From Naegleria gruberi (taxonomy: Eukaryota): a DNA stretch of 64,000 nt. This document shows, piece by piece, positions 2,311 to 28,574 of this stretch. Position 1 is the stretch's first letter. Each line of letters begins with the position of its first letter. The stretch lies in NCBI GenBank assembly GCA_000004985.1, contig GG738854.1; one strand, given 5' to 3'. The translations under genes were made by a program, and so were the position numbers. Under the pieces are notes generated by a model, which saw nothing but the letters and a program-made list of their open reading frames with translations, was not told the origin of the DNA and searched no databases.

Positions 2311-2314
2311 AATG

Positions 2315-2480: not shown

Positions 2481-2504
2481 TGTTTATTAGTGATTTAAAC
2501 AATA

Positions 2505-3000
2505 GTACTAGAAGAAAAGTATCCAAGTTGGTGAAGTACATGTTGAGTTATGGTCCATGTACTTTTTTGAAAATTCACATGTACCTATCCCTATCAAAAC
2601 TTGATGAAAATCCACCGTTCAAATTTACTATGCTACTATTGACCATTTCCAACAATCCTACATTAATAGTTTTCCAATCTTTCCAATGGATTCAACAGTG
2701 ATGATGATTTTAGTAAAATGTTGAGTTTCACCAAAATAAAGATATTTCCAAGACATAGAAATCACCCATACTATTCTACTATATTAAATATATCTATGAT
2801 GACGGTTGGTGAGTGTTCCGATGATGGTTTACCAACTTGAAAAATTATAATCCAAAAATTGATTTACTATTTTATGATGAAAGTCCAATAATAAAAATTA
2901 CTACTATTACTACTATTTAGATGATGTTGAGATGATGATGTGAAAGTTTGGCAGCTTACGGATGTGAAACCACTCGAAGAATCATCAAAGTACATCACGT
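2505..3000. repeat. Right arm of the inverted repeat (copy B equivalent 15073-15568)
   Basis: See the left-arm entry. The two arms flank a 2.27-kb core that holds the LINE fragment and the 83-bp duplication. The arm sequence belongs to a roughly 0.5-0.8 kb repeat family that recurs at 3290-3990. Confidence 0.7.
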
Positions 3001-3289
3001 ACTAGATATTGAAATATTTTTTCACATATTCTTAAATGAACAAACAAACCTTGCTTCAAATGGATGAATGACATGCTATGAGAAAAACAATAAAAACATG
3101 AAAATATCAGATATCCATGATTTTCACAAATTATGCTACAAGACTTGAAATTATACATTTAATAACATAATAAACATTATGAATTGTTGTTTTATTGTTG
3201 TTTGATTTGTAATTGGGCTATGAATCAACTCTGATAGCATCAAATATCGGAACTTGGTAAATTGACAACATGACGAAAATCTGATAATA

Positions 3290-6648: not shown

Positions 6649-7128
6649 AACCCAAACCCAAACCCAAACCCAAACCCAAACCTTAACCCAAACCCAAACC
6701 CAAACCCAAACCCAAACCCAAACCCAAACCCAAACCCAAACCCAAACCCAAACCCAAACCCAAACCCAAACCCAAACCCAAACCCAAACCCAAACCCAAA
6801 CCCAAACCCAAACCCAAACCCAAACCCAAACCCAAACCCAAACCCAAACCCAAACCCAAACCCAAACCCAAACCCAAACCCAAACCCAAACCCAAACCCT
6901 AAACCCAAACCCAAACCCAAACCCAAACCCAAACCCAAACCCAAACCCAAACCCAAACCCAAACCCAAACCCAAACCCAAACCCAAACCCAAACCCAAAC
7001 CCAAACCCAAACCCAAACCCAAACCCAAACCCAAACCCAAACCCAAACCCAAACCCAAACCCAAACCCAAACCCAAACCCAAACCCAAACCCAAACCCAA
7101 ACCCAAACCCAAACACAAACCCACACAC
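6649..7128. repeat. Telomeric repeat tract (CCCAAA)n, i.e. (TTTGGG)n on the G-strand
   Basis: About 78 perfect 6-bp units of aaccca/cccaaa, with a few variants (ccttaaccc, ccctaaaccc) and the distal end cccaaacacaaacccacacac. It is preceded by the 68-N gap (6581-6648). Confidence 0.9.
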
Positions 7129-10100
7129 TATTGATACCATTGTGTTCACAATTGAAAATCTAGTCGATTGATATTAGTTTCATCAATTGGTAATATTAAT
7201 ATGGTCAATTAGGGTATCTCAAAGTCAATTTTGAAAAACTAAGAGTAGCTATATAAAATGTCTAATAAATCATAATTATATATCAAAACTGATATCAAAA
7301 TGCTTCAAATTACATATATAACATGATAGAATTGAAATAAATATCATATCTCATATTAAATATTGAGATAGTCAATTAAGGTACCTCAATATGGAAGTAC
7401 CCTAAGGATAATGAGATTCATTACCAAATTGATACAATATGTTATTAACATCATATAATGATGTTCCTATCAATTTCATATCATTTGGACATCATTCAAC
7501 ATTCATGTCATTCAACCATGTCAGCAACTACTCATGGCAATATGAAAAGTCAATATCAAGAGTTGCAACAAGATAGAGTATCATACCACTACTCTTATAA
7601 TTGATATTGATAACGTTTCTGAGTGATAGAAATCAATATCTATATAATTGGAATATCTGCCAAGCTACTGTCCTAATTGATCAAAGGTATCATTCTTACA
7701 TGTCAATAATGGTAAGAATCAATACCAATTCAATATTATCATGTTATAATCATCATATACTCTCNNNNNNNNNNNNNNNNNNNNNNNNNNNNNNNNNNNN
7801 NNNNNNNNNNNNNNNNNNNNNNNNNNNNNNNNNNNNNNNNNNNNNNNNNNNNNNNNNNNNNNNNNNNNNNNNNNNNNNNNNNNNNNNNNNNNNNNNNNNN
7901 NNNNNNNNNNNNNNNNNNNNNNNNNNNNNNNNNNNNNNNNNNNNNNNNNNNNNNNNNNNNNNNNNNNNNNNNNNNNNNNNNNNNNNNNNNNNNNNNNNNN
8001 NNNNNNNNNNNNNNNNNNNNNNNNNNNNNNNNNNNNNNNNNNNNNNNNNNNNNNNNNNNNNNNNNNNNNNNNNNNNNNNNNNNNNNNNNNNNNNNNNNNN
8101 NNNNNNNNNNNNNNNNNNNNNNNNNNNNNNNNNNNNNNNNNNNNNNNNNNNNNNNNNNNNNNNNNNNNNNNNNNNNNNNNNNNNNNNNNNNNNNNNNNNN
8201 NNNNNNNNNNNNNNNNNNNNNNNNNNNNNNNNNNNNNNNNNNNNNNNNNNNNNNNNNNNNNNNNNNNNNNNNNNNNNNNNNNNNNNNNNNNNNNNNNNNN
8301 NNNNNNNNNNNNNNNNNNNNNNNNNNNNNNNNNNNNNNNNNNNNNNNNNNNNNNNNNNNNNNNNNNNNNNNNNNNNNNNNNNNNNNNNNNNNNNNNNNNN
8401 NNNNNNNNNNNNNNNNNNNNNNNNNNNNNNNNNNNNNNNNNNNNNNNNNNNNNNNNNNNNNNNNNNNNNNNNNNNNNNNNNNNNNNNNNNNNNNNNNNNN
8501 NNNNNNNNNNNNNNNNNNNNNNNNNNNNNNNNNNNNNNNNNNNNNNNNNNNNNNNNNNNNNNNNNNNNNNNNNNNNNNNNNNNNNNNNNNNNNNNNNNNN
8601 NNNNNNNNNNNNNNNNNNNNNNNNNNNNNNNNNNNNNNNNNNNNNNNNNNNNNNNNNNNNNNNNNNNNNNNNNNNNNNNNNNNNNNNNNNNNNNNNNNNN
8701 NNNNNNNNNNNNNNNNNNNNNNNNNNNNNNNNNNNNNNNNNNNNNNNNNNNNNNNNNNNNNNNNNNNNNNNNNNNNNNNNNNNNNNNNNNNNNNNNNNNN
8801 NNNNNNNNNNNNNNNNNNNNNNNNNNNNNNNNNNNNNNNNNNNNNNNNNNNNNNNNNNNNNNNNNNNNNNNNNNNNNNNNNNNNNNNNNNNNNNNNNNNN
8901 NNNNNNNNNNNNNNNNNNNNNNNNNNNNNNNNNNNNNNNNNNNNNNNNNNNNNNNNNNNNNNNNNNNNNNNNNNNNNNNNNNNNNNNNNNNNNNNNNNNN
9001 NNNNNNNNNNNNNNNNNNNNNNNNNNNNNNNNNNNNNNNNNNNNNNNNNNNNNNNNNNNNNNNNNNNNNNNNNNNNNNNNNNNNNNNNNNNNNNNNNNNN
9101 NNNNNNNNNNNNNNNNNNNNNNNNNNNNNNNNNNNNNNNNNNNNNNNNNNNNNNNNNNNNNNNNNNNNNNNNNNNNNNNNNNNNNNNNNNNNNNNNNNNN
9201 NNNNNNNNNNNNNNNNNNNNNNNNNNNNNNNNNNNNNNNNNNNNNNNNNNNNNNNNNNNNNNNNNNNNNNNNNNNNNNNNNNNNNNNNNNNNNNNNNNNN
9301 NNNNNNNNNNNNNNNNNNNNNNNNNNNNNNNNNNNNNNNNNNNNNNNNNNNNNNNNNNNNNNNNNNNNNNNNNNNNNNNNNNNNNNNNNNNNNNNNNNNN
9401 NNNNNNNNNNNNNNNNNNNNNNNNNNNNNNNNNNNNNNNNNNNNNNNNNNNNNNNNNNNNNNNNNNNNNNNNNNNNNNNNNNNNNNNNNNNNNNNNNNNN
9501 NNNNNNNNNNNNNNNNNNNNNNNNNNNNNNNNNNNNNNNNNNNNNNNNNNNNNNNNNNNNNNNNNNNNNNNNNNNNNNNNNNNNNNNNNNNNNNNNNNNN
9601 NNNNNNNNNNNNNNNNNNNNNNNNNNNNNNNNNNNNNNNNNNNNNNNNNNNNNNNNNNNNNNNNNNNNNNNNNNNNNNNNNNNNNNNNNNNNNNNNNNNN
9701 NNNNNNNNNNNNNNNNNNNNNNNNNNNNNNNNNNNNNNNNNNNNNNNNNNNNNNNNNNNNNNNNNNNNNNNNNNNNNNNNNNNNNNNNNNNNNNNNNNNN
9801 NNNNNNNNNNNNNNNNNNNNNNNNNNNNNNNNNNNNNNNNNNNNNNNNNNNNNNNNNNNNNNNNNNNNNNNNNNNNNNNNNNNNNNNNNNNNNNNNNNNN
9901 NNNNNNNNNNNNNNNNNNNNNNNNNNNNNNNNNNNNNNNNNNNNNNNNNNNNNNNNNNNNNNNNNNNNNNNNNNNNNNNNNNNNNNNNNNNNNNNNNNNN
10001 NNNNNNNNNNNNNNNNNNNNNNNNNNNNNNNNNNNNNNNNNNNNNNNNNNNNNNNNNNNNNNNNNNNNNNNNNNNNNNNNNNNNNNNNNNNNNNNNNNNN

Positions 10101-11217
10101 NNNNNNNNNNNNNNNNNNNNNNNNNNNNNNNNNNNNNNNNNNNNNNNNNNNNNNNNNNNNNNNNNNNNNNNNNNNNNNNNNNNNNNNNNNNNNNNNNNNN
10201 NNNNNNNNNNNNNNNNNNNNNNNNNNNNNNNNNNNNNNNNNNNNNNNNNNNNNNNNNNNNNNNNNNNNNNNNNNNNNNNNNNNNNNNNNNNNNNNNNNNN
10301 NNNNNNNNNNNNNNNNNNNNNNNNNNNNNNNNNNNNNNNNNNNNNNNNNNNNNNNNNNNNNNNNNNNNNNNNNNNNNNNNNNNNNNNNNNNNNNNNNNNN
10401 NNNNNNNNNNNNNNNNNNNNNNNNNNNNNNNNNNNNNNNNNNNNNNNNNNNNNNNNNNNNNNNNNNNNNNNNNNNNNNNNNNNNNNNNNNNNNNNNNNNN
10501 NNNNNNNNNNNNNNNNNNNNNNNNNNNNNNNNNNNNNNNNNNNNNNNNNNNNNNNNNNNNNNNNNNNNNNNNNNNNNNNNNNNNNNNNNNNNNNNNNNNN
10601 NNNNNNNNNNNNNNNNNNNNNNNNNNNNNNNNNNNNNNNNNNNNNNNNNNNNNNNNNNNNNNNNNNNNNNNNNNNNNNNNNNNNNNNNNNNNNNNNNNNN
10701 NNNNNNNNNNNNNNNNNNNNNNNNNNNNNNNNNNNNNNNNNNNNNNNNNNNNNNNNNNNNNNNNNNNNNNNNNNNNNNNNNNNNNNNNNNNNNNNNNNNN
10801 NNNNNNNNNNNNNNNNNNNNNNNNNNNNNNNNNNNNNNNNNNNNNNNNNNNNNNNNNNNNNNNNNNNNNNNNNNNNNNNNNNNNNNNNNNNNNNNNNNNN
10901 NNNNNNNNNNNNNNNNNNNNNNNNNNNNNNNNNNNNNNNNNNNNNNNNNNNNNNNNNNNNNNNNNNNNNNNNNNNNNNNNNNNNNNNNNNNNNNNNNNNN
11001 NNNNNNNNNNNNNNNNNNNNNNNNNNNNNNNNNNNNNNNNNNNNNNNNNNNNNNNNNNNNNNNNNNNNNNNNNNNNNNNNNNNNNNNNNNNNNNNNNNNN
11101 NNNNNNNNNNNNNNNNNNNNNNNNNNNNNNNNNNNNNNNNNNNNNNNNNNNNNNNNNNNNNNNNNNNNNNNNNNNNNNNNNNNNNNNNNNNNNNNNNNNN
11201 NNNNNNNNNNNNNNNNN

Positions 11218-12010
11218 ATGGTCTTTGATTAAATTTAAAAATAGACTGCCGTTAATTACTGGAATATTAATATTCAAAGCTTGTTGATCAAGCTATTGAT
11301 TGAAATCAAACCGATTATTGAATATTGATCATTGAATTGGTGAATAATCACTCTTGATAATGCTAGATATTTCATATTGCATGCAAATCAACCTGATTCA
11401 ATCTACAAAGGTTGGTAGTTGCACCACTTCGTGGCGAAACTACCATTCCACGATGAATCAACAAAGAATCACTTCCATTCAACTCAATTTGACCGTTATA
11501 ATCAATAAATCAATGAAATGTTCCTTTATTAGCAATACCTGTTCAATCTAATGAGTATATTCACGTCCCAAACATTTGACTTCTCAAAGTCCATAATACA
11601 AAAGTTAGTTCTGACCTGACCTTTATAAATCTATCAATATAAGAAATGAAACCATCAAATTTACATCATTAATAGATTATAAGAAATATAATCAATGATA
11701 TAAATCTTCATTAAGTAATCTCTTAAATAACCCAAATAAATCAACTCTGAATCCTAACCAAACCCCCCAGTTTCCAGATCACAAAAGTCAAGATACTATA
11801 TATGGTCTTTGATTAAATTTAAAAATAGACTGCCGTTAATTACTGGAATATTAATTCAAAGCTTGTTGATCAAGGTATTGATTCAAATCAAACCGATTAT
11901 TGAATATTGATCATTGAATTGGTGAATAATCACTATCTTGATAATGTTACTTATTCATATTGCATGCAAATCAACCTGATTCAATCTACAAAGGTTGGTA
12001 GTTGCGAAAC
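11218..12010. repeat. Tandem repeat of about 585 bp (1.35 copies; second copy carries internal deletions)
   Basis: atggtctttgattaaatttaaaaatagactgccgttaattactggaatattaat...ggtgaataatcact...gcatgcaaatcaacctgattcaatctacaaaggttggtagttgc... begins both at 11218 and at 11803. Copy 1 contains the hairpin tggtagttgcaccacttcgtggcgaaactacca. The motif atctcttaaataacccaaataaatcaactctgaatcctaacca at 11720-11762 also occurs at 956-1000 and 13524-13568. Confidence 0.8.
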
Positions 12011-12568: not shown

Positions 12569-15500
12569 TAATATTTTAGTGAAATTCAATATTTTCACTA
12601 AAATCATCATCACCGCCAGATTTATATGATAATTTGGAAAACTTTCAATCTAGTATTGTTCAGCATGGTCGATTCCATCAGGTAAAATTACTTCCGAATA
12701 TTTTCCTATTGGTTATCATGATGATAGGTTCATGTATATTTTCAACATGTACATATACCATATCTCAACATGTACTTCACCAACTTGAAAAATGTCTTTC
12801 ATCACTACTATTCAAATAGATAATAAACAATATATTTATTATCAGATTTTTATCATTTTGTGTTTTTGCCAATTTCGGGTTATTCATGGTCACCAATCAT
12901 GATCCATGCCAAAAGTACACAGCCAATCATCTTGAAACATTAATAAACTTTTATTAGTATTATTGTAGGTGTACTATATAAATTATTTCGTCTTGTTTCG
13001 TTGAAATCATGAAGATTTGGATTTTTCTGTTTTTCATTAAATTTCACATCACCTACACCATATTTGTTGATGTAAACTAGACTAGTTACATGTACATAAT
13101 CAATGGTTGATTCTCTAATCATGTTTTAGTGTTGTTTTGTGTATTTAGGATTTTGAAATCTTGCGAATTATCCTGAGGTTATTCTTCATATAAATATGAT
13201 TCCTCACTTCATGATATGAGGAGGGATTGATATCATGATTATTTGGAAGTGTTGTACAAATTTTGGACACTATCTTAATTGAAATCAGGTAGAAAGAGTC
13301 CAATCTTTAACACCATATAAAATATGACTTGTGGCGATGGTTTTGACCTTGTTGTTCATACCTCCAACATTGGAAAAGTAGAATGATAAACACCTTTTCT
13401 CATCATATTCAATATTTATGGAAGTTATGACCATAAGGATAAATTTCGCATGACCCAAGCATGCAGATTTTATTCGCCTAGATAAATTTCGCCTAAATTT
13501 TAGGCGAAATAAATCGCCTAGAACATAATCTCTTAAATAACCCAAATAAATCAACTCTGAATCCTAACCAACCCCAAGCTCTCGCAGTATATGTTAGTAA
13601 CTGCTACAAAAATTCATCATGGTACAATCGTCCCACTGACTCCTTCATCAAAAACAAAAAATACACTTCTGCTTACCAAAGGCAACAGCTGTCCCAACCA
13701 CTTAGCCCGAACCAAACGTCCAAACACTGAACAGAACTAGATGGTTGAACAGCTAGTCTCTTATATCATAACGAAGTAGATGTTGAAAAAGTTGGTTATC
13801 TTTGAAATTCAATTGATCTTAATGATGTTTAAGGAAATAAGGTTAATTGTTCGATTTAAGGTGAAAGAAATGAAATAAAAAGAAAAAACAAGAATTTTAT
13901 TATTTTAATATCATTGTGTAATGTTCACAATGAGTTTGATAATTTTTGAATCACTCTTGAAGGAGTGAATCATAAATAAAAGGTGTAAGTTTATTAATGT
14001 CTCTTGTATCAATAACGACCTGAGAGACCACACTTTTTCGGCATTTAAGGACTCTGTGCAACATTTGAATGATTTGGGTTAAGATTGAGTGCCGTTGAGT
14101 GAGTGTGCCTAAAGTAGGCGGATTGGAATTTTGAGTTTTTGATAAAAGGTTGTCGGGAGGGACGGTTGTACCACATAGTGTTTTTGTAACAATTTTCTAA
14201 ATAAATGGCGAATGCCTTGTAAATTTCTAGAGCTACAGCCTTAGGAAGTCTTTTGTTCTTTGACCATAAGAGCCAGTCGCTGCGAGAGCAGCTTCCGTTA
14301 AAATCAATAATAAGGCAGTTCCTCACTTTGTCTGAAGGGAGACGAATCGGATCGAGGTTAAATTTGGAGGAAATATTGTCCCAAGTAGCATACAGTTCCT
14401 GTTTTTCATGGTTGCTTTTAGAGCACGATGAGAAAACGTGTGTCCAGTCTTCGGCAGTTTGACATGAATCACAGGTTGTATTGTTATCTAGAATAATAGC
14501 GTGGTGAAGGTTTAGGAAAAGGAGTCTTTGTTGATAGTAGGAGAGATGGAAATTTCTCCAAAAGGAAACAGTTGAAAGGTGCCAATTAAGATTTGAATCT
14601 AACTGGCCCAACTCTGAGATGGTTTTTTTGGATCTTTTGAGTTCAAGAATATCGTTTCGTAAGTTGGTGATGGGTTTGTGTGACGATCTGTCACAAAGAA
14701 CCCATCCACTCTCTGTTGGATTGAAGTATGCATTGAGTTTGTTGATATTTAAGGCTGCATTTGTCCAGAGAGAGTCTGTAGATTTGCCTCGGAGAGCTTT
14801 TTGAATCGAGGCCCTTGCAATGTTGCGGGTGATTGTGGATGAGGAGTTCACAAATCTACAGACCGATGCTGTGCATTCAATGTCTAACACATCTACAGGA
14901 GACGTGACTAGAAATCTCTCTCCAAGCCAAAACACAAAATAATGAAAAACTGATATTAAATATGGTCTAACACATCTACAGGAGACGTGGCTAGAAATCT
15001 CTCTCCAAGCCAAAACACAAAATAATGAAAAACTGATATTAAATATGGTGTTTATTAGTGATTTAAACAATAGTACTAGAAGAAAAGTATCCAAGTTGGT
15101 GAAGTACATGTTGAGTTATGGTCCATGTACTTTTTTGAAAATTCACATGTACCTATCCCTATCAAAACTTGATGAAAATCCACCGTTCAAATTTACTATG
15201 CTACTATTGACCATTTCCAACAATCCTACATTAATAGTTTTCCAATCTTTCCAATGGATTCAACAGTGATGATGATTTTAGTAAAATGTTGAGTTTCACC
15301 AAAATAAAGATATTTCCAAGACATAGAAATCACCCATACTATTCTACTATATTAAATATATCTATGATGACGGTTGGTGAGTGTTCCGATGATGGTTTAC
15401 CAACTTGAAAAATTATAATCCAAAAATTGATTTACTATTTTATGATGAAAGTCCAATAATAAAAATTACTACTATTACTACTATTTAGATGATGTTGAGA

Positions 15501-15624
15501 TGATGATGTGAAAGTTTGGCAGCTTACGGATGTGAAACCACTCGAAGAATCATCAAAGTACATCACGTACTAGATGTTGAAATATTTTTTCACATATTCT
15601 TAACTGAACAAACAAACCTTGCTT
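12569..15624. repeat. Segmental duplication copy B (same block as 1-3056)
   Basis: Same ORF set as 1-3056 shifted by 12568 (66/12634, 1477/14045, 2477/15045). The sequence runs upstream into the left inverted arm at 12290-12568. Confidence 0.85.
14045..14878 (-). mobile_element. Second copy of the LINE-like 3' fragment, inside duplication copy B
   Basis: Identical 354-aa minus-strand ORF (14045-15109) with the same zf-RVT-like motif. Confidence 0.4.
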
Positions 15625-15991
15625 CAAAAAATCAACCAAACTCTCGTAATACCTTGCTTGGTTTTCGTTCCAACAATTCAAGCCAAACAACACAAGAGAA
15701 TCTATTTAATATAATTGGAAAATTCAATTGTATAAATGTATCATTCAATTTATCGGTGTTACTAAGGTTGTGCATTTTCCATTTTGGTTTACCGTCATCA
15801 GTATTAAGCGGATGCTCTTCTCCCGTCTTTAGTAAGAAACTGAGTGTTCTCCGTCTCATCCGTCCCCCGTTTCACCGTCACTTAGTACCATCTCTACAGG
15901 ATTTCTTGTAGCTCCTTTTTCAACAGAAAAAAAGAATTATTTAATAAGTTGTGCTCATTGTTGTAAGAATCATTCCTCATCTGAAACAATA

Positions 15992-16206: not shown

Positions 16207-17601
16207 NNNNNNNNNNNNNNNNNNNNNNNNNNNNNNNNNNNNNNNNNNNNNNNNNNNNNNNNNNNNNNNNNNNNNNNNNNNNNNNNNNNNNNNNNNNNNN
16301 NNNNNNNNNNNNNNNNNNNNNNNNNNNNNNNNNNNNNNNNNNNNNNNNNNNNNNNNNNNNNNNNNNNNNNNNNNNNNNNNNNNNNNNNNNNNNNNNNNNN
16401 NNNNNNNNNNNNNNNNNNNNNNNNNNNNNNNNNNNNNNNNNNNNNNNNNNNNNNNNNNNNNNNNNNNNNNNNNNNNNNNNNNNNNNNNNNNNNNNNNNNN
16501 NNNNNNNNNNNNNNNNNNNNNNNNNNNNNNNNNNNNNNNNNNNNNNNNNNNNNNNNNNNNNNNNNNNNNNNNNNNNNNNNNNNNNNNNNNNNNNNNNNNN
16601 NNNNNNNNNNNNNNNNNNNNNNNNNNNNNNNNNNNNNNNNNNNNNNNNNNNNNNNNNNNNNNNNNNNNNNNNNNNNNNNNNNNNNNNNNNNNNNNNNNNN
16701 NNNNNNNNNNNNNNNNNNNNNNNNNNNNNNNNNNNNNNNNNNNNNNNNNNNNNNNNNNNNNNNNNNNNNNNNNNNNNNNNNNNNNNNNNNNNNNNNNNNN
16801 NNNNNNNNNNNNNNNNNNNNNNNNNNNNNNNNNNNNNNNNNNNNNNNNNNNNNNNNNNNNNNNNNNNNNNNNNNNNNNNNNNNNNNNNNNNNNNNNNNNN
16901 NNNNNNNNNNNNNNNNNNNNNNNNNNNNNNNNNNNNNNNNNNNNNNNNNNNNNNNNNNNNNNNNNNNNNNNNNNNNNNNNNNNNNNNNNNNNNNNNNNNN
17001 NNNNNNNNNNNNNNNNNNNNNNNNNNNNNNNNNNNNNNNNNNNNNNNNNNNNNNNNNNNNNNNNNNNNNNNNNNNNNNNNNNNNNNNNNNNNNNNNNNNN
17101 NNNNNNNNNNNNNNNNNNNNNNNNNNNNNNNNNNNNNNNNNNNNNNNNNNNNNNNNNNNNNNNNNNNNNNNNNNNNNNNNNNNNNNNNNNNNNNNNNNNN
17201 NNNNNNNNNNNNNNNNNNNNNNNNNNNNNNNNNNNNNNNNNNNNNNNNNNNNNNNNNNNNNNNNNNNNNNNNNNNNNNNNNNNNNNNNNNNNNNNNNNNN
17301 NNNNNNNNNNNNNNNNNNNNNNNNNNNNNNNNNNNNNNNNNNNNNNNNNNNNNNNNNNNNNNNNNNNNNNNNNNNNNNNNNNNNNNNNNNNNNNNNNNNN
17401 NNNNNNNNNNNNNNNNNNNNNNNNNNNNNNNNNNNNNNNNNNNNNNNNNNNNNNNNNNNNNNNNNNNNNNNNNNNNNNNNNNNNNNNNNNNNNNNNNNNN
17501 NNNNNNNNNNNNNNNNNNNNNNNNNNNNNNNNNNNNNNNNNNNNNNNNNNNNNNNNNNNNNNNNNNNNNNNNNNNNNNNNNNNNNNNNNNNNNNNNNNNN
17601 N

Positions 17602-18074
17602 AACCCAAACCCAAACCCAAACCCAAGGGCAAACCCAAACCCAAACCCAAACCCAAAGCCAAACCCAAACCCAAACCCAAACCCAAACCCAAACCCAAAC
17701 CCAAACCCAAACCCAAACCCAAACCCAAACCCAAACCCAAACCCAAACCCAAACCCAAACCCAAACCCAAACCCAAACCCAAACCCAAACCCAAACCCAA
17801 ACCCAAACCCAAACCCAAACCCAAACCCAAACCCAACCCAAACCCAAACCCAAACCCAAACCCAAACCCAAACCCAAACCCAAACCCAAACCCAAACCCA
17901 AACCCAAACCCAAACCCAACCCAAACCCAAACCCAAACCCAAACCCAAACCCAAACCCAAACCCAAACCCAAACCCAAACCCAAACCCAAACCCAAACCC
18001 AAACCCAAACCCAAACCCAAACCCAAACCCAAACCCAAACCCAAACCCAACCCACCCAAACCCAACCCAAACCC
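17602..18074. repeat. Telomeric repeat tract (CCCAAA)n joined directly to coding sequence
   Basis: About 78 units of CCCAAA with sparse variants (cccaagggc, cccaaagcc, cccaaccca). It is preceded by the N-gap 16207-17601 and is followed immediately at 18075 by in-frame NHL-repeat coding sequence (t caa tta tat aat cct tat gga gtt gcc...). Confidence 0.9.
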
Positions 18075-21000
18075 TCAATTATATAATCCTTATGGAGTTG
18101 CCATCAGTTCAAGTGATGAAATTTATATTGCTGATACAAACAATCATAGAATTCGTAAAATCACAACATCTGGTATTATTTCAACAATTGCTGGAACTGG
18201 AACAGCAGGATATAATGGTGATGGTTCATCTGCAACAAGTGCTAAATTATATTTTCCTTATGGAGTTGCCATCAGTTCAAGTGATGAAATTTATATTGCT
18301 GATATGGATATGTTCAATAATAGAATTCGTAAAATCACAACATCTGGTATTATTTCAACAATTGCTGGCGGTATAGGCGATGGACTATCAGCAACTACAG
18401 CTTACATTAATGCCATTACGTTCGAATTTTCCTCAAGTGGTGAAATTTATATTGCTGATACAAACAATCATAGAATTCGTAAAATCACAACATCTGGTAT
18501 CATTTTAACAATTGCTGGAACTGGAACACAAGGATATAGTGGTGATGGTTCATCTGCAACAAGTGCTCAATTAAATTCTCCTTATGGAGTTGCCATCAGT
18601 TCAAGAGGTGAAATTTATATTGCTGATACAAACAATAACAGAATTCGTAAAATCACAACATCTGGCATTATTTCAACAATTGCTGGAACTGGAACATCAC
18701 GGCTATAGTGGTGATGGTTCATCTGCAACAAGTGCTCAATTATATAATCCTTATGGAGTTGCCATCAGTTCAAGTGATGAAATTTATGTTGCTGATTACA
18801 ATAATAACAGAATTCGTAAAATCACAACATCTGGCATTATTTCAACAATTGCTGGAACTGGAACATCCGGCTATAGTGGTGATGGTTCATCTGCAATAAG
18901 TGCTCAATTATATAATCCTTATGGAGTTGCCATCAGTTCAAGTGATGAAATTTATATTACTGATACAAACAATAACAGAATCAGAAAACTTAGTCCTTGG
19001 TGCACTGGAAATGCCATTCTTTTAGATGGATCTTGTGAGTATCCATGTTTTGGAACTACAAACAAAATTCCAGCTGTTGTATGCTCTGGAAAAGGTTCAT
19101 GTATTGGCTATAATCAATGCAATTGCACAGCTGATTACTTTGGTTACAAATGTGATGAATTTTATTGCTATGAGTTGTTGAGAAATCACTCTGGTGTTTG
19201 TTCATCCCAAGGTATTTGTACTTCTCCCAATGAGTGCTCTTGTTCATCCGGTTATTATGGGGAAAATTGCCAATACTTTTATTGCCACTCTATTCCGTTC
19301 AACTCTTCTACAGTATGTTCGTCAGTAGGAACTTGTATTGGATTGAATAATTGCTCGTGTAATCCAGGATATTCAGGGTCGTATTGCCAAGACTTTACTT
19401 GTTATGGTGTTAGTTCTAAAAACACTACCGTATGTTCTTCTCATGGCACGTGTACATCTCTAAATAATTGCTCTTGCGTTACTGGTTATTATGGAAATAA
19501 TTGCGAGAATTTTGAATGTTTCGATATTCTTTTCACTAATTCTACAGTTTGTTCTAGCAGAGGAAAATGTTTCTCTCCTAACAATTGTACATGTGATTCT
19601 GGATATTATGGATCTAATTGTGAAATGTATGATTGTTATGGATTGTCCAAAAACAGTTCTAATGTATGTTCAGGGCATGGAAGTTGTACTTCATTCAATA
19701 ATTGTACATGTAGAGATGGTTACTTTGATTCTAAATGTGAGTCATTTAATTGTGCCGGAGAGAAATTCACTGGTCAAAGTCTTTGTCAAAATAATGGAAC
19801 TTGTTCTGGCCCTGGAAATTGTGTTTGTCCATATAAGTTTGGAGGAGCAAGATGTGAATATTTTAAATGTTTTTCAGTGACAGCCAACGAACCAAAAGTA
19901 TGCGGAGGACATGGTACATGTCTCAACTATAACAATTGTTCTTGCTCAGAAAAGTGGTTTGGAGAAGATTGTTCAGTTACTAATTGTTTTAATATAACAT
20001 CAAATTCTAGTTCTGTATGTGGTGCTAGAGGAAATTGTAGTGATTATGACAGGTGTACTTGTAATAATGGTTATATTGGTAGAGAATGTGAACATATTGT
20101 TTGTTATGACAGGATTGAAAGTGATAGAATGGTTTGCTCTGGAAATGGTAAATGTATATCACCAAATAATTGTACATGTGAAAGTGGTTTTGTTGGAAAT
20201 GAATGTCAATATCATGAAATTTATTTGAACACATCATCTGCAATGATATTTTCTTTCCATGATAGTCTAATGAAAATGTTGCCAAATGGCAGTGAAATAT
20301 TTTCATGTAATGATATTTTTGAAGAATCTGAACTAATGAAATTTGGCGAAAATTCTATTTTATGTCAATGGAGAAAGAAATCAATGCAAATTTATCTTGG
20401 TTTTGATTACACAATTCAACATTACTCGGTTATTCAAACCAAATTTAATTTTTCAATGATTGTGAACAGTTTAACCAATAATGATGTTTCTTCTTCCAGT
20501 TGTACATTTGGATACTCATTAACAGAAGCATCACCAATGTTAGATTTAGTAATACGTTTGAATTGTGATGATACTTTACATGGATTCACGAAAATGACAA
20601 GTAGATGGATATGTAGTCAATGTAGTGGCGTTATTTCATCATTGTTAAACAAATATTCCAATAGAACATTTATTCATATTCCAATTTCATATACAAACAG
20701 TTTAAACCCTATTCAAGGATATAAGATTATTAATTTACAAGCTCTTTATTCATCTGGAGTGACTAGTGAAAAATCAATAAGTAAGGAAGTGAAGATACAA
20801 ACCTATACAAAATCATTACCCCCTAGTTATTACTGGTTAAGTGATAATTTTGACGGAAAGGCATATTCCTGTATTGGTCATAATTGTATTTTAGAAACTT
20901 CATTGAATAGTTTAAATTCTTCAATTTCATATTCATTTTCTGGCTTTTTCAGTTTATTGAATACTGATTTATATTCCAAACAAATGGTTAGAATGATTAA

Positions 21001-24000
21001 TGAATATTCAGGAGGAGTTTTAGACAGTGAATTTAATTCTAATATGCAAGTTTTTGGAGTTCAATTGAAAACATATGTTTTCTTACCTTTTACTATTGAC
21101 TCTTTTAAATATTCTACATTTAAAAATTTGGATTTCGTAATGACAGGTGTTAATAGAACCTATTCTATCAACTCTGATGAAACAATACGTATTGAGCTAA
21201 TGATTGATGATCCTTATATTTCCAAATATACTTTAAGTGATTATATGGAGTTTTCTTGGCAATGTTTCAAAGTTTCACCTTTCAACAAATCTCAACATTT
21301 AAGTGATAACTTGTGCTCTTCTACTAAATCTTATCTTGAACAAATAGATATTAAGCAAATAATGTCTTCAAAAGAAGGTTCTTATTATATTACTGCTTTA
21401 ATATCCTCCAATAAGTATTTTATAACAACAGTTTATCATTATGAAGGTTATATTGAGTTCTTAGATATTTCAAAGCTCTCTCCAAAAATAACTACAGATT
21501 ATATACCAGCAATTACACCTTCCCATAAGAATATTTATATGAGAAATGTAGTGAAATCTTCAACAATGGTTTCATTTATATGGAAACTCAAACAAGGATA
21601 TTTAAATAATATTGATAATAATATTGAAGAATTTCTTCAAGATAATACAATTTACAGAACTATAATGGAAAATGATATTGAAATAATTTTAAAAATTGAT
21701 AACAAACATTTAATTGAAGGAGAGGTATACGAATTTGAATTGTCAACTACCAATTCAAACGGAATTACCACTATATCCATTTCAACTAGAATTGATTATA
21801 GTCCAAGATTATCCTGTGATGTAGAAAATTTGAAACATGATGTTAATTTTACAAGTTTTGAAACTTTGATAGGTATTAACTGCTTGAAATTACCATATGA
21901 AAGTATTTCAAGTTTTGTAATGGAATTTCATTCAAACAACGAAAGATTAGGTGTAATATCCAATACACCAAAGAAATCTTTGATAACAAAGCTACCGTAC
22001 CCATATTCTAAAGATGGTAGAATTGCTCTTGTCGTAAAACTTCAAAACTTATATGGTTCTATTGGAATTTTTAGAAAAAATATTAAGATTGAATTACCTA
22101 GTTATTTGTTAAATGACAATTCTATCCTATCAAGATTTAATTATATTTCAGATCAATTCCAAATTCTTAAAAATTCTAAACCACTCAAGATGGAAATTTC
22201 CAGTGAAATGAATAGTTTACTCACCCTCTTAATTCAAAATGAAACTCTTTCAACATTATCAGACAGCATTTTGAAAGAATTTAATCCAATGAAAATAAGT
22301 TCATTTAATTCAATGCTTGGTGATATGTTGAAAATAACAAAGAGTTTATGGGATATTACTTACAAAGTTGATGAAAGAGTTATTCAATTAACTTTACCAA
22401 TAATTTACAAGATTTCTAACATTTTAAAAACAACAATTAGTGATACTTCATCATTATCAACATTTAGTATTGAATTAGAAGCTTTTTTGGAATTAATTTA
22501 TTCAGGAATGAAGAAAGCACTTAATTATTATCCAACTTTCATTTATAATGATTTACTTGATAATTATCATTTAGAAGAAATTAAATCATTGCAAAATATT
22601 CTTGCAAATATCCATCAAAATAATTTAGATGAACAATATAAGATCCATAAATTTGCTTTAGAATATTTCAAGTTAACAGGGAATAATGGCGACAATTCAA
22701 GTTTTGTCGAAGATTTAGAATATTCATCTTTATTGAATGAGAAATCAATTTCACTCACAGTTTCCAACTTTAAAGTTGATATCAAATTGCCTAGTGACTT
22801 TTCTAGTCAAATTTCTCTAACTTCCAAATCTAAACTATTCTATTCTATTAGATCATTTAATTCTCCAACTAGACAGGAAACAACACTCCTGCAAAACAAA
22901 CCAATTGTAGATCTATCTCTGTTAGATACATCATACAATACAATCACAGTGAAAAATATTAATCCACCAATAATATTCAAATTTCAAGGCTTAATTACAA
23001 ACAACAAAACTGGTATTAACACTACTTGTGTTTTTTATGATACTACCTTAAAGATATGGTCAACTAGTGGACTTGAGACCTTAACAACAATTAACAAAAG
23101 AACAGATGACTATATTTACTTTGATATGGAATGTAGATCTAATCATTTATCAGTGTTTTCCATCCAAGAAATTAATTATAACTCTCCAATTGTGCAAACA
23201 TCTGGTTTATCATCTACAAGATCCGTTTCTAGTAATGATTCTATATTAATTATCATCTTATCTACAGTGTTGCCTATTACTTTTTTGATATTTGCTTTCA
23301 GTATTATTCTAATTGTCTTTATTATACTTTTATTTAGAAGCAAGCAAAAGAAAGCAAATGAACTTGCGAAAACTAATGCTAATAATATTGAACTTGAAGG
23401 TTTTTCGAGTACTGATTTCCCGACAGAAGGAAGTATGTTTATCCAACCTCTCATGAGCATTTCTTCAAATGGAACTACTAGCGAAGCTTTCAATCCTCTC
23501 TCTAGATATTCCAACTTGATAAGAATTGGTCAAGGAGCTTTCGGATCAGTCTTTAAGGCCTTTGATAGTAAAACAAATTCGGTGAAAGCTATCAAAGTCA
23601 TTAAATATTCTTCCATGGAAGAATTGAATAATTTTATGAAAGAAGGAACTCAATTAATGAATGTCAATCATCCCTATATTTTACGGGTGAATGAATTCTT
23701 TGTTAGTAAGGACCAATTACTTTGTATTGATATGGACTTTTATGAGCTGGGAGATTTAGTTAAGTTAACAAATATTGATTTTGATTGTTCTGAAAAATTG
23801 ATCAAACAAATAATTTATCAAATGTGTCAAGCTCTTGATTATATTCACTGTACTATGAAAATAATTCATAGAGATATCAAACCATCCAATGTTTTTGTGA
23901 AAAGCTTGGAAAAAGATAATATCCACATAATTGTGGCAGATTTTGGGTTAGCTAAATCTAATATTGGATCGACAAATAATTCCTATGCTGGTACTCCTAT

Positions 24001-24348
24001 ATTTATGGTAAGTTTTTTGTACATTTAACATTTTATTCATTTGAAAAGTCCCCTGAGCTTGGTTTGGGTGGAAAGTACTATTACAACACTGATATTTATA
24101 GTTTAGGAGTTACAATCTATCAAATCATGACAAAAGATACCTTTACATCCATAAGTCAATTATACCTAGGTAAAGACCAAACAGATGTAACCAAATTATT
24201 GTATAAAAAGTTACAAGAAAGTGGTCAATATTCTTCAAAACTTGTAGAATTGGTAGTATTAATGTTAACCAAAGATAACTTGATTAGACCACAAGCTCAA
24301 GATATTTTGGAGGATTATTATTTTGATGATTTGAAAAAGAAACAATAA
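18075..24348 (+). CDS. Receptor-type Ser/Thr protein kinase: NHL repeats + about 13 tenascin-type EGF repeats + transmembrane segment + kinase. N-terminally truncated by the telomere; 2 exons
   Basis: Exon 1 is 18076-24007 and exon 2 is 24049-24348. The intron at 24008-24048 starts gtaagt, ends aaaag, and is 41 bp. Splicing joins GTPIFM to [21 protein letters not shown], which is the APE region of the kinase. Kinase motifs present are [21 protein letters not shown] and DFGLAK. The EGF repeats follow CxGxSxxxxVCSxxGxCxxxNxCxCxxGYxGxxCExF. The transmembrane segment is [32 protein letters not shown] 1-bp insertion at about 18697 (acatcacggctatag vs acatccggctatag in the other copies) shifts the frame between NHL repeats. 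This may be a sequencing error or a true disruption. Confidence 0.8.
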
Positions 24349-24455: not shown

Positions 24456-27026
24456 TTAATTTTTAATCAAAGAAAAGAAACGGGCATTTGGGGTTTGTTG
24501 AATTGCTTTCGTTACGATTTCTTGATCTTGCTTAAATGAATTCGCAGCAAAGCCAAGAGCCAATCCATTTTGTTGAACAGCTTCCATTACAACTCGCCTA
24601 TCTTTAGTTAATGATTTATCAGTGTACTCTAGTGCCAATCCATTTTGGCTCACTGCCATTATTGCTATAGCACTATCTTTCCGTAATGACCTATCTGCAT
24701 ATTCCAAAGCTAAACCATTTTGTTGAACTGCTGTTGTAACAATTTCTCTATCTTTCTTCATTTTTTCATTGGCATATTTGAGAGCCAAACCATTTTGTTG
24801 AACTGCCTTCATTACAATTTCCTTTTCGTTCTTAATTGACTTATGCATACATTCGAGTAATAAACCGTCCCGTTGAACAGTTTCAGAGGCAAATTCTCTA
24901 TCCTTTCTCAATGATTCACTCACAAAATTAATTGCCAATCTATTTTGTTGAATGGCTCTCATTACAATTTCTTTGTCTCGTCTCAGCATTTCATCTGCAT
25001 ACTTTAATGCTAAACCATTTTGTTGAATTGATTCCAATACAATTTCTCTATCTTTTCTTAATTCCTTGTCTGCAGATTCTAATGTTAGCCCATTTTGTTT
25101 AACTGCTTTCAGTACAATCTCTCTTTTTTTGACAAATGAACCATCAACAATCTGTAAAACATGTTCATTTTGTGCAACAGCATTCAACACGATTTCCTTA
25201 TCTTTTCTCAATGATTCATCTGCATATTTGATTGCAAATCTATTTTGTTTAACAGCTTCTGTGACAATTTCTATATCTTTAGTAAGTGATTTGTCTACGT
25301 ATTCTAGAGCTAACCCGTTTTGTTTCACTGATTTCAATACAATTTCTCTATCTTTCCTGAAAGAGATATCAATAGAATCAAGTAGTAATCCTTTGTGTTG
25401 TACTGCTGCCAAAACAAATTCTCTATCTTTCCTAAATGATTCATCTGCGTACGTGAATACTATTCCATCATGTTGAATTGCACTCATTACAAATTCCCTA
25501 TCTTTTCTCAATGATTCGTTGGCATATTGAAGTGCCTCTCTATTGTTTTTGAATGCAGTTAAAACTATTTCCCTGTCATTTAAGAAAGTGGTATATTTCA
25601 ATAACAACCCATTTCGTCCAACAATATCATTAATAAACTCTCTATCTCTCATTAATGATTCATCGAAGTAATTAAAGGCAGTTTCATTTCTTTCCAGTAC
25701 ATGAATGGCAAATGATTTATCTGTTCTCACTGATTCATCAATTGTTAGTAAATTTCTAACATCTTTGACCACTATTTCAACCAAGAAATTTCGGTCTTGT
25801 TTCAATGACTTGTGTGCACTCTGCAAAATATTATTTTGTAAAATGAAATCTCTATTCTTATGAGGGAGTGTTGTTAAATCTTTCATAAGGTATTCCAAAC
25901 TAGAGAAAGCTGACAACTCCTTTTCATTTTTCCAAATCAAAGACTTATTATTGAAATATATTATTCCATTAAAGCCAATATTATAAAATCCAATTGCTCT
26001 TTGTTGAATATCACTTGAAATTAATTGTTCTATCATTTCAAGAATATCTGTTGTAAACTGATCACTATCGTGATTATTGAATAAAGCTCTGAAAGTTTTA
26101 CCTAATGAAAACAAGTCAGTGTTAAATGTTGGTTTGAAATTGGCTTTGAAAATTCGTTTGCCTTTTTCATTGACTTCTAATACCTCTGGAGGAGCATAGC
26201 TTGTTGTTCCACCTCGCATTTGGGAGGCAACAGTGTCATTCAATAAGGTGAGTCCAAAATCTCCAATGGCAACCTCGACTTCATTCGAATTCAAATCAAG
26301 TTTCTTCACAAGAATATTTGCAGGCTTGATATCTGAATGAACCATACCTCTTTGTTTCATAAATAGTAATACTTCACAACATTGGAACATCATTTTGAAA
26401 ATTGCAATTGATGGAAGTTTGATTTTCTTCTTGATTAAATCTTGTAAACTTCCCATTTCAATAAATTCCATTTCAATACAACATGTCTGTCTAATCAAGA
26501 TTGAATTGTAAACCTTCACAACATTTGGATGATCCAATTTGGCTCCACTGACTGCTTCATTTGGTCCCATTGTTGAAATGATTGGTATCACTTTGATGGC
26601 TTTTACATTTTGACCATTAGAATTCCTTTTAATCACTTTTAAAACAGTTCCAAATCCCCCAGCTCCTATTTTCTCAGCATGCCATGTTTTTACTCCATCA
26701 TCAACTTGTTCATTATTCGATCCAATAATTTCTGGCAATCCATTCAGAAATTTGTTGAAATATCCCAGTACAGAATTGGTTATTCCCTGGCTGAATTTAG
26801 CATTATCATGATCATCATCAAAATCTTCGAGTAATTTAAGAAAGTATCGGAGATGAGGTTTAGTGTCGTGTTCGAATTTAATATCCGAAATTATGGATTT
26901 GTTTTGATCATGTGGATTAATGTTAGGTGAAGTATTTGCCTTTGCTTGTTTTATTGTTGGTTCGCATTCTTCTCCACCACCATTGAGGGATGTGGTGTGA
27001 TCATCTTGCTCATACTTTCTTTTCAT
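24456..27026 (-). CDS. Protein kinase with a long C-terminal array of DUF4116-like repeats of about 36 aa
   Basis: Single 856-aa ORF. N-terminal kinase motifs are GAGGFGTVLKV, VKAIKVI, HSDIKPANILV, DFGL and SYAPPE. It is followed by about 15 repeats of the form (K/R)DREIVLxAVxQNGLALEYAxxSLxKD. It converges tail-to-tail with the preceding gene, with 107 bp between the stops. Confidence 0.8.
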   Translation of the reverse strand: MKRKYEQDDHTTSLNGGGEECEPTIKQAKANTSPNINPHDQNKSIISDIKFEHDTKPHLRYFLKLLEDFDDDHDNAKFSQGITNSVLGYFNKFLNGLPEIIGSNNEQVDDGVKTWHAEKIGAGGFGTVLKVIKRNSNGQNVKAIKVIPIISTMGPNEAVSGAKLDHPNVVKVYNSILIRQTCCIEMEFIEMGSLQDLIKKKIKLPSIAIFKMMFQCCEVLLFMKQRGMVHSDIKPANILVKKLDLNSNEVEVAIGDFGLTLLNDTVASQMRGGTTSYAPPEVLEVNEKGKRIFKANFKPTFNTDLFSLGKTFRALFNNHDSDQFTTDILEMIEQLISSDIQQRAIGFYNIGFNGIIYFNNKSLIWKNEKELSAFSSLEYLMKDLTTLPHKNRDFILQNNILQSAHKSLKQDRNFLVEIVVKDVRNLLTIDESVRTDKSFAIHVLERNETAFNYFDESLMRDREFINDIVGRNGLLLKYTTFLNDREIVLTAFKNNREALQYANESLRKDREFVMSAIQHDGIVFTYADESFRKDREFVLAAVQHKGLLLDSIDISFRKDREIVLKSVKQNGLALEYVDKSLTKDIEIVTEAVKQNRFAIKYADESLRKDKEIVLNAVAQNEHVLQIVDGSFVKKREIVLKAVKQNGLTLESADKELRKDREIVLESIQQNGLALKYADEMLRRDKEIVMRAIQQNRLAINFVSESLRKDREFASETVQRDGLLLECMHKSIKNEKEIVMKAVQQNGLALKYANEKMKKDREIVTTAVQQNGLALEYADRSLRKDSAIAIMAVSQNGLALEYTDKSLTKDRRVVMEAVQQNGLALGFAANSFKQDQEIVTKAIQQTPNARFFSLIKN

Positions 27027-27380: not shown

Positions 27381-28574
27381 TTACAAATTATACACTTCAT
27401 AATCTTCAACCTGGAAATTTTTTGTGCCTGCCAGGTATGCATTTGCTGTTGTGGAACTAACTGACATTGTTGCATCACAATAGGAAGCACAAAGATTTGA
27501 AGTACTAAGAGAGTTAGAGTTGCAATTATTTGAAATAAATAAGTCATGTCCTCCTCCAAATGTTGGTCCCAGACCTGATACTTGATATGTTGCATATTCA
27601 CCATTTGTTTTCCCACTCTTATAGAAATCTGAATATTGTTGAGGTAATTTGGCAAATCTTTCCACTCCAGTAGAAGAAACTAAACTAAATAGAAATGCTG
27701 ACTTGTCTGATACATAGCCAGAATTTTGAACATTCCATGAAACACTGGTATAACCTCCAAATATTGCTCCCGACTGTGCCTTGACAATTACAACAGTTGC
27801 ACCCTTATTATCACATTTCGAGTGGAATTTATCTCCTGCAAAGCCATCTCTGGATGCCTTGAAAAGCAATTTGGTAAAAGAGTTTGGCATGTTCAATATT
27901 TCATTGGAAAATCTTGTCATTTGAGCAGAGGTTAATATTGCTGTTTGGTTTACGCAATTTGTTCCAGTCCATCCACTTTTACAAGTAGAACAAGTTGTAC
28001 CATTCCAATTTCCAGAGCATACTGAACAGTTTCCAGGTGATGTACAGTTCAAACATTTGGAATCACACACTGGAATTGAACATGAAGGTCCAGTCCAATT
28101 ACCTGAACAAGAAACACATTTTCCTGGTGATGAGCAATTCAAACATTTTGAATCACAGATAGGAATGTTACAATCAGGTCCATCATAATTACTACAAGCA
28201 CTATTAACAATTACAATTTCTTGATTGATAAGATTAAGAGCTTGAGTAATTTTCTTCAATTGAGCACTTCTTATCGTTAAGATTGATTCCGTATTGTTAG
28301 AATTACTTAAAACTGCAATGGCAACTTGTAATTTTAAAGCTGTGGATTGTAATCTAGCAGCTTGCTCATTCAAGTCACCCAACCATTCTCTCAACGTTCC
28401 ATTACCACCACTACTTGATGAAGACCCTACAACAAAGGTAACATGCACACAAGTAAATATCAGCAGCAGCGAACAAACTACCAGCAAACATGCACTAAGG
28501 ATTGCTTGCTTATTTGGCACAATTGGTCGTCTTGGCATTATTTTGTTTGTTGTGTGTGTGATATTATTTAGCAT
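27381..28574 (-). CDS. Type II membrane protein with coiled coil, two Cys-rich EGF-like repeats and a C-terminal TLDc domain
   Basis: 397-aa ORF. The N-terminal signal-anchor is ILSACLLVVCSLLLIFTCVHVTFVV. The EGF-like repeats are NIPICDSKCLNCSSPGKCVSCSGNWTGPSC and SIPVCDSKCLNCTSPGNCSVCSGNWNGTTC. The C-terminal 170 aa match the TLDc consensus: LLFKASRDGF..FHSKCDNKGATVVIVKAQSGAIFGGYTSVSW...SAFLFSL...GPTFGGGHDLFI. Confidence 0.7.
   Translation of the reverse strand: MLNNITHTTNKIMPRRPIVPNKQAILSACLLVVCSLLLIFTCVHVTFVVGSSSSSGGNGTLREWLGDLNEQAARLQSTALKLQVAIAVLSNSNNTESILTIRSAQLKKITQALNLINQEIVIVNSACSNYDGPDCNIPICDSKCLNCSSPGKCVSCSGNWTGPSCSIPVCDSKCLNCTSPGNCSVCSGNWNGTTCSTCKSGWTGTNCVNQTAILTSAQMTRFSNEILNMPNSFTKLLFKASRDGFAGDKFHSKCDNKGATVVIVKAQSGAIFGGYTSVSWNVQNSGYVSDKSAFLFSLVSSTGVERFAKLPQQYSDFYKSGKTNGEYATYQVSGLGPTFGGGHDLFISNNCNSNSLSTSNLCASYCDATMSVSSTTANAYLAGTKNFQVEDYEVYNL

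Follow-up and report, generated by a model that had tools for sequence, protein, structure and literature searches.

Two kinds of membrane protein have been named as carriers of the GAIN domain, the adhesion GPCRs (G-protein-coupled receptors) and the polycystin-1-like proteins (PMC3321182, PMC13197933), the latter being the other membrane-protein family named besides the receptors (PMC3321182). Cleavage of the domain has been explained mainly by a tethered agonist that docks into a bundle of seven or 11 transmembrane (TM) helices (PMC3321182, PMC13197933). That the domain directly precedes the first TM helix is a stated rule, and the examples given come from animals, choanoflagellates, Dictyostelium and Tetrahymena (PMC3321182). 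A cross-kingdom survey of transmembrane kinases makes no mention of Naegleria, NHL, EGF or GPS (PMC10463195). In the literature, the receptor Ser/Thr kinases of plants and protists and the animal receptor tyrosine kinases were not found described with a GAIN domain, and searches combining Naegleria with GAIN or GPS, combining GAIN with receptor kinase, or using the locus tags of the family reported below returned no description. Here a gene on the plus strand, at positions 18076-24348 of a 64,000-nucleotide stretch of the Naegleria gruberi genome (GenBank assembly GCA_000004985.1, contig GG738854.1; the whole stretch is hereafter called the window), was analyzed computationally. The locus is best read as belonging to a family, restricted to Naegleria, of adhesion-type receptor Ser/Thr kinases that have type I topology, contain a GAIN domain and whose function is predicted, a reading to which a probability of about 75% was assigned.

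The window is AT-rich eukaryotic DNA with a GC content of about 0.33. Its source is N. gruberi NEG-M, and four neighbouring open reading frames (ORFs) match the proteins D2V6A2, D2V6A4, D2V6A7 and D2V6A8 exactly (665-kb scaffold). The receptor gene begins at 18076, the first base past a repeat array, and ends in a TAA stop codon at 24346-24348. A 1,814-codon ORF was found at 18584-24028, and coding sequence extends upstream of it to 18076 in a different frame. From 18584 to 24007 a single unbroken reading frame encodes the EGF repeats and the middle region, followed by the TM helix and by subdomains I-VIII of the kinase. An intron of 41 nucleotides then interrupts subdomain VIII, and its removal rejoins the subdomain as GTPIFM/SPELGLGG (the slash marks the junction). 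EGF repeats and TM helix share one ORF with two-thirds of the kinase, which therefore is no gene of its own; ectodomain and kinase form a single gene, consisting of one 5.4-kb ORF plus the 41-nucleotide intron. A conceptual product of 2,076 amino acids was made by deleting one extra base at position 18700, and the Pfam scans were run on this repaired product. The coding features are as follows.

18076-18964, plus strand: NHL array of six 168-bp units, the first of them partial (Pfam NHL 7e-43 and TEN_NHL 8e-38, amino acids 2 to about 300).
18965-20212, plus strand: Cys-rich linker and about 10 EGF repeats of the teneurin/tenascin type (Pfam EGF_2 1e-37, EGF_TEN 3e-30 and EGF_Teneurin 5e-22, amino acids about 300-712; repeats counted by the pattern C.C...G..C).
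20213-22087, plus strand: beta-rich spacer of 625 amino acids, modelled as what is probably a string of Ig-like/FN3-like beta-sandwiches.
22088-23176, plus strand: predicted GAIN domain, with a helical subdomain A followed by a beta-sandwich subdomain B.
23024-23167, plus strand: predicted GPS motif, C..W..G....C...HL/S.F, with the slash at the putative cleavage site (Pfam PF01825, hhalign and conservation within the family).
23240-23335, plus strand: single TM helix (amino acids 1721-1753) followed by a basic stop-transfer sequence, RSKQKK (the sole Kyte-Doolittle window above 2.0 in the protein).
23513-24007, plus strand: protein kinase domain, subdomains I-VIII, the part in the first exon (Pfam Pkinase 9e-49).
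24008-24048, plus strand: intron of 41 nucleotides, GT..AG (GTAAGT...AAAAG), inside kinase subdomain VIII.
24049-24348, plus strand: second exon, with kinase subdomains VIII-XI and the TAA stop.

An earlier first-pass annotation of the window had proposed the combination of NHL, EGF, TM segment and Ser/Thr kinase. This architecture was recovered in the repaired product by the Pfam matches, the one hydrophobic helix and the catalytic motifs. The limits that it gave for the gene proved exact, from the first base after the array to the stop codon, and its placement of the kinase in the same gene as the ectodomain, which a separate downstream kinase gene would have contradicted, agrees with the one ORF that spans both.

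The same architecture recurs in other genes. An exhaustive HMMER search with the middle region of the product found four long proteins colinear with it.

D2VPM5 (NAEGRDRAFT_70916, P0058), N. gruberi, 2,807 amino acids: 71% identity in the middle region, over 1,041 amino acids, E = 0.
D2VMZ5 (P0059), N. gruberi, 2,271 amino acids: 40% identity.
D2VGC0 (P0060/P0071), N. gruberi, about 2,166 amino acids: 39% identity.
FDP41_013523, Naegleria fowleri, 2,142-2,266 amino acids: 29% identity.

A word-indexed homologue search with either the middle region or the GAIN alignment returned no match; because the exhaustive search found D2VPM5 at 71% identity, this empty result reflects a limit of the search method and not a lack of relatives. 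All four long relatives have a hydrophobic N-terminus readable as a signal peptide, followed by NHL repeats, EGF repeats, the same region of about 1,000 amino acids, a TM helix and a Pkinase domain. The TM helix of the window copy aligns with those of its paralogues. D2VPM5 and D2VMZ5 have their intron at the position found in the window copy, and the N. fowleri member is a single ORF that lacks this intron. These paralogues are already present in public databases, where all of the long relatives are listed only as 'predicted' or 'uncharacterized' proteins. Two of the entries end at the intron: as modelled by JGI, D2VPM5 and D2VMZ5 both run on into it after GTP(I/L)FM and are without kinase subdomains VIII-XI. 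In D2VGC0 the HRD motif is replaced by HGN and the Gly-loop is degenerate, and this protein is predicted to be a pseudokinase with the same ectodomain.

Shorter members also appear in the family. N. fowleri FDP41_002843 and the entry P0015 have the same kinase and no GAIN region. A contig from the ENA (ERZ2098899 NODE_78, positions 7358-11818) encodes NHL repeats, two EGF repeats, a TM helix and a kinase, likewise with no GAIN region. Its product clusters with FDP41_002843 at 90% identity, and its kinase adjoins that of the long N. fowleri member in a neighbour-joining (NJ) tree. Such short members are without the GAIN and Ig-like block, which has therefore been acquired or lost in the course of the family's history. 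All relatives found come from Naegleria, which suggests that the family is restricted to this genus, as the first-pass annotation had supposed in calling it lineage-specific. The layout of a complete member is in all likelihood a signal peptide, one or more NHL beta-propellers, an EGF array, Ig-like sandwiches, a GAIN domain with its GPS motif (HL/S or HL/T about 30 residues before the membrane), the TM helix and a STE20/NEK-like kinase.

The part of the protein between the EGF array and the membrane, about 1,000 amino acids, had been reported in the first-pass annotation as having no obvious domain. This description is replaced here by a predicted GAIN domain with a GPS motif at the membrane, preceded by Ig-like beta-sandwiches. 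An AlphaFold2 (AF2) model of the last 388 amino acids before the membrane, built from an input alignment of only five sequences, had a pLDDT of 82.6 and a pTM of 0.80 and showed a helical subdomain followed by a beta-sandwich. The putative cleavage triplet, His-Leu/Ser, is encoded at 23144-23152 (amino acids 1690-1692 of the repaired model). In the AF2 model it occupies the turn that leads into the final beta-strand, with strands 356-364 and 369-374 on either side. The TM helix begins at about amino acid 1722, so that the domain directly precedes the membrane. The triplet is HLS in the window copy and three paralogues and HLT in N. fowleri. Its His and Leu, together with a Phe at P3', are invariant in all five family members, and P1' is always Ser or Thr. 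This conservation holds across paralogues that in the GAIN region are only 27-39% identical to the window copy.

Profile comparisons point the same way. GPS was the top Pfam family in each of the five members when isolated 78-residue segments were scanned, and in four of five in the 388-residue context. For the window copy, Pfam PF01825 scored 25.3 bits in the isolated segment, with a cut-off of 22.5. With hhalign, an alignment of the five members matched a canonical four-Cys GPS protein of Naegleria at 95% probability (E 3e-8) and a GAIN-B protein from N. lovaniensis at 97.8% (E 7e-13, 161 columns). The weaker matches in the HMMER search were Naegleria NHL or EGF proteins that align with the part before the TM helix; four of them have a Pfam GPS match, and one, from N. 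lovaniensis, carries the UniProt name 'GAIN-B domain-containing protein'. Fold, position and conserved triplet taken together suggest that the region before the TM helix is a GAIN domain with a GPS motif, an assignment for which the sequence evidence alone is borderline.

The remainder of the ectodomain is built from repeats. Six N[NH]RIRK repeat cores were counted in the NHL array, whose tandem 168-bp units are mutually 84-92% identical; the reading frame is frame 1 through 18699 and frame 2 thereafter. The beta-rich region that follows the EGF repeats (about 625 amino acids) was modelled with low confidence. No Pfam REJ match was found in it, and matches of the PKD type were non-significant (E 0.15-0.17, one member each).

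On the cytoplasmic side, the Pfam Pkinase match (9e-49) spans amino acids 1813-2069 and profile positions 3-263. The catalytic set read in the translation is complete: Gly-loop, VAIK Lys, alphaC Glu, HRD Asp, DFG and APE/SPE, the last being SPE here. By these motifs the kinase appears to be catalytically intact and of the Ser/Thr type rather than a tyrosine kinase, in agreement with the non-tyrosine HRD/DFG class assigned to it earlier. Among solved structures, those of the STE20-group kinases STK24, STK25 and MST4 come nearest, and that of NEK1 is not far off (E about 1e-27 to 1e-23). Beyond Naegleria, the closest sequences are bacterial and plant NEK6-like kinases, at no more than 40% identity. 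The kinase is 89% identical to that of D2VPM5, as against 69-74% for the parts of the ectodomain, a pattern expected under purifying selection. The receptor-type kinases of Naegleria, both those of the long GAIN type and those of the short NHL-EGF-TM-kinase type, form one clade in the NJ tree, which is rough and without bootstrap, and stand apart in it from the bacterial and plant kinases sampled from the database matches.

A scheme for the action of such a receptor can be proposed. The NHL/EGF head would bind an extracellular partner, which might be prey, a substrate or another cell. During maturation the GAIN domain would cleave itself at HL/S, giving an N-terminal fragment that stays attached non-covalently and a second fragment composed of stalk, TM helix and kinase. 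A ligand or a mechanical pull on the head would alter the juxtamembrane state, either because the N-terminal fragment is lost or because oligomerization changes, and this alteration would switch the cytoplasmic kinase. We advance only tentatively the idea that the Naegleria GAIN domain is a juxtamembrane module of single-pass receptor kinases, in which autoproteolysis and release of the N-terminal fragment by force or ligand gate a Ser/Thr kinase. Cleavage, ligand and coupling to the kinase are all conjectural parts of this scheme.

Two sets of observations weigh against reading the locus as an adhesion-type receptor kinase. The first set concerns the window copy itself, which as assembled cannot make a receptor. 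It opens in the middle of an NHL repeat at 18076, with no start codon and no signal peptide, and an extra base at 18700 shifts the frame; neither the truncation nor the frameshift had been noted in the first-pass annotation. The gene is also unannotated, being missing from the N. gruberi proteome, from protein databases and from all other assemblies searched. The second set concerns the GAIN domain. The GPS score is borderline and depends on context, falling to 19.9 bits in the 388-residue context and going unlisted in the full-length scan, and the AF2 model has the shallow alignment mentioned above. The Cys/Trp pattern of the motif is reduced, with two of the four canonical Cys and one of the two Trp retained. 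GAIN domains were not retrieved by Foldseek against the PDB, and a sequence profile of the region found no relative among PDB sequences. Some animal GAIN domains with good motifs stay uncleaved.

The features that bear on the 5' end of the gene are as follows.

17602-18075, C-rich strand: (CCCAAA)n array of about 79 units, 474 bp, read from the sequence.
18700, plus strand: extra base (tcaCggc, where the repeat that follows has tccggc), which shifts the frame and leads to a TAG at 18706-18708.
4521-6580, plus strand: separate contig with an ATG, a signal peptide, at least 11 NHL units and the first EGF repeat, then a gap.

The array at 17602-18075 follows a gap of 1,395 N (16207-17601), runs straight into the NHL coding sequence and degenerates near the junction. 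The sequence TTTGGG, of which CCCAAA is the C-rich strand, is a candidate telomere repeat of N. gruberi (PMC3622300), and the array is oriented as the left end of a chromosome, with the C-rich strand reading inward. A second (CCCAAA)n array of about 475 bp lies at 6649-7123, in the same orientation and also directly after a gap. The two internal arrays are either chromosome-end contigs scaffolded internally or interstitial arrays of the telomere type.

The contig at 4521-6580 encodes an N-terminus homologous to that of D2VPM5 (MKVVLLAILLCIV...TQSLLLYNITT). Along its last 1,095 bp (5486-6580) the contig shares 95.9% identity with 18074-19175, and none of the 45 differences falls at or beyond 18778. 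The last 398 bp (6183-6580) are identical to 18778-19175, and the roughly 700 bp at the junction are about 6% divergent. Since the 45 differences all precede 18778 and the final 398 bp are identical, there appear to be two versions of the 5' region of the gene that merge downstream. In the in-register alignment of the two, the one-base excess of the window copy is placed at 18697, positions 18700 and 18703 being substitutions, and the other copy, one base shorter here, is in frame. The contig at 4521-6580 carries the 5' end of the same gene or of an allelic one and probably represents the true 5' end of the window copy. A second NHL copy is present where the first-pass annotation had placed it, at 4521. 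The NHL array on this contig itself changes frame twice (near 4990 and 5140) and contains an internal duplication of about 500 bp. At 4521-5600 a block of about 110 amino acids is repeated with identical protein sequence (... AGYSGDG); either the block was recently duplicated in tandem or the 168-bp repeats were wrongly assembled.

Elsewhere in the same part of the window, 3-3060 and 12571-15628 share an element of 3,058 bp at 99.9% identity, with unrelated flanks (3061 onward against 15629 onward). Contigs 1 and 3-4 were considered as colinear haplotypes on the basis of this piece. The proposal was rejected: the piece is a repeated element, and with flanks that are unrelated it is no proof of allelism. 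Within it lie a 354-codon ORF (1477-2541; 14045-15109, minus strand) with no Pfam match and repeats of about 500 bp, both inverted and direct; the element is probably mobile.

The alternative that survives best, to which we give a little less than an even chance, is that the window copy is a dead allele. A chromosome end would have broken inside the NHL array and then acquired a telomere de novo. The promoter would have been lost together with the start codon and the signal peptide, the remnant would be decaying, as the frameshift at 18700 indicates, and the architecture would be real in no genes but the paralogues and the intact allele represented by 4521-6580. Several features of the junction fit this account, namely an array of at least 474 bp with the orientation of a left chromosome end, its degeneration at the junction, its attachment to NHL sequence with no intervening N, and a repeat unit that is the one proposed for N. 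gruberi telomeres. The 700 divergent bp followed by 398 identical bp would fit two haplotypes collapsed downstream, and the frameshift falls in the divergent, telomere-proximal part, where the other copy is in frame. Against it, the array is internal to a scaffold and beside a gap, and the second array, 11 kb away in the same orientation, points to scaffolding problems. The ends of Sanger contigs can be of single-read quality, so that the junction and the frameshift are possibly errors or the product of a chimeric clone. No stop interrupts the 5.6 kb of coding sequence that remain, and any inactivation would therefore have to be very recent.

Somewhat less probable, and still to be taken seriously, is that the truncation and the frameshift are both assembly artefacts. 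The intact gene would then be the 4521-6580 contig (contig 1) joined to 19176-24348, and the telomere end would be a chimeric or misplaced pile of reads. The identity of the end of contig 1 (6183-6580) with 18778-19175 speaks for such a join, as does the N-terminus homologous to that of D2VPM5 that contig 1 provides. NHL units of 168 bp that are 84-92% identical are difficult to assemble, the frame changes and internal duplication of contig 1 are typical of mis-assembled repeats, and three gaps and two stray telomere arrays lie within 18 kb. This explanation is opposed by the sequence of the two copies: the NHL array of contig 4 is not a mis-registered version of contig 1, as the best in-register alignment retains the 45 differences, which therefore represent two real sequence versions. 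The telomere-NHL junction, moreover, falls inside a contig.

A third alternative concerns the protein and not the assembly. The region before the TM helix could be an uncleaved, GAIN-like beta-sandwich serving as a rigid stalk in an otherwise ordinary, ligand-dimerized receptor kinase. Two Cys and one Trp in place of the canonical four and two, the borderline Pfam GPS scores, and the presence of the same kinase without a GAIN region in FDP41_002843 and P0015, so that the kinase can work without it, are all consistent with a stalk of this kind, and uncleaved GAIN domains are established in several animal adhesion GPCRs. We nevertheless regard it as rather less likely than not, since the His, Leu and P3' Phe are invariant and P1' is Ser or Thr despite identities of only 27-39% across the GAIN region, and since the triplet lies in the canonical turn before the last strand at the canonical distance from the membrane.

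The last alternative, in which another gene downstream encodes the kinase and the adjacent genes give the illusion of a receptor, has in its favour only kinase-only N. gruberi database entries (P0009, P0010, P0013 and P0014), which look like truncated gene models because they start in the juxtamembrane region, and it can be dismissed as extremely improbable given the 1,814-codon ORF that runs from NHL/EGF through the TM helix to kinase subdomain VIII and the same fusion in four other genes of two species, the N. fowleri one in a single ORF that lacks the intron.

Other genes of the window were also inspected. D2V6A2 (24456-27026, minus strand) is convergent with the receptor gene, the two stop codons being about 110 bp apart, and encodes a Ser/Thr kinase with ten DUF4116 repeats (Pfam 7.7e-135). 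Its kinase is 28% identical to the receptor kinase and falls outside the Naegleria receptor-kinase clade in the NJ tree. A kinase at 47516-48475 is 32% identical to the receptor kinase over 90 amino acids. The first-pass annotation had counted these two kinases, with the NHL copy at 4521, as signs of a local expansion. Both kinases exist where it placed them, and their identities of 28% and 32%, the DUF4116 repeats of one, and the 398 identical bp that make the 4521 copy part of the same or an allelic gene all speak against an expansion of related genes. A 397-codon ORF at 27381-28574 (minus strand) encodes a hydrophobic N-terminal segment, Cys-rich repeats that look EGF-like by eye, and a TLDc domain (Pfam 1.3e-27). 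At 52931-63403 (plus strand), an ORF of 3,490 amino acids, which combines a VWA domain with about 20 Big_9/cadherin-like repeats, encodes another very large putative surface adhesion protein.

Insofar as the adhesion-type receptor kinase reading is correct, a GAIN domain placed before one TM helix and a kinase would mean that the module can serve a different output, and the range of the domain would extend to Heterolobosea (Discoba). The proteins would also offer a simple system in which the effect of cleavage or shedding can be asked without a pocket for a tethered agonist. Should the tentative idea of gating by autoproteolysis hold as well, they would form a class of their own among GAIN receptors, the third, and would allow the role of GAIN cleavage to be tested independently. 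Members of the family are candidates for surface receptors that sense prey, substrate or cell contact, also in the pathogen N. fowleri. Gene models are broken in this family, with two ending in the intron, several reduced to kinase-only fragments, and the window copy unannotated.

The closest proteins to the window copy are D2VPM5, D2VMZ5, D2VGC0 and FDP41_013523, which are colinear with it over their full length but have signal peptides and complete NHL arrays. Among described receptors, the plant RLK/Pelle kinases, other protist receptor kinases and animal receptor tyrosine kinases share with the Naegleria protein a general plan in which one TM helix links a sensor outside the cell to a eukaryotic protein kinase in the cytoplasm. 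The Naegleria kinase differs from theirs in being nearest to the structures of STE20-group kinases and NEK1, and not to Pelle/IRAK, TKL or TK kinases.

Teneurins resemble the Naegleria protein in the type of their repeats, and the Pfam families TEN_NHL (8e-38) and EGF_TEN (3e-30) match it. Teneurins are type II proteins in which EGF repeats precede NHL, followed by a YD-repeat shell and a toxin-like C-terminus, and they have no kinase. The Naegleria protein is of type I, with NHL before EGF and a kinase, so that the likeness is at the level of repeat type only. Homology with teneurins was rejected on the reversed order and topology, and no YD-repeat (RHS/YD) or toxin-like family was among the Pfam matches.

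Adhesion GPCRs such as BAI3/ADGRB3, latrophilin/ADGRL and GPR126/ADGRG6 have seven TM helices and couple to G proteins, whereas the Naegleria protein has one TM helix and a Ser/Thr kinase. With one helix and not seven, it would have no 7TM pocket for a tethered agonist. Its subdomain A is longer (about 190 amino acids of helices) than in adhesion GPCRs, and its GPS motif has two Cys and one Trp. Membership in the adhesion GPCRs was rejected, as one hydrophobic segment is followed by a kinase and no seven-TM (class B2) domain was found. In polycystin-1, PKD1-like and sea-urchin REJ proteins, as in the Naegleria protein, beta-sandwich repeats are followed by a GAIN domain with GPS motif directly before the membrane. 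Membership in the polycystin-1-like family was likewise rejected: Pfam scans gave no REJ or PLAT match, there is a single TM helix as against 11, no channel-partner region is present, and the output is a kinase. Overall, the ectodomain is closer to that of an adhesion GPCR or a polycystin, set on a kinase, than to that of a teneurin.

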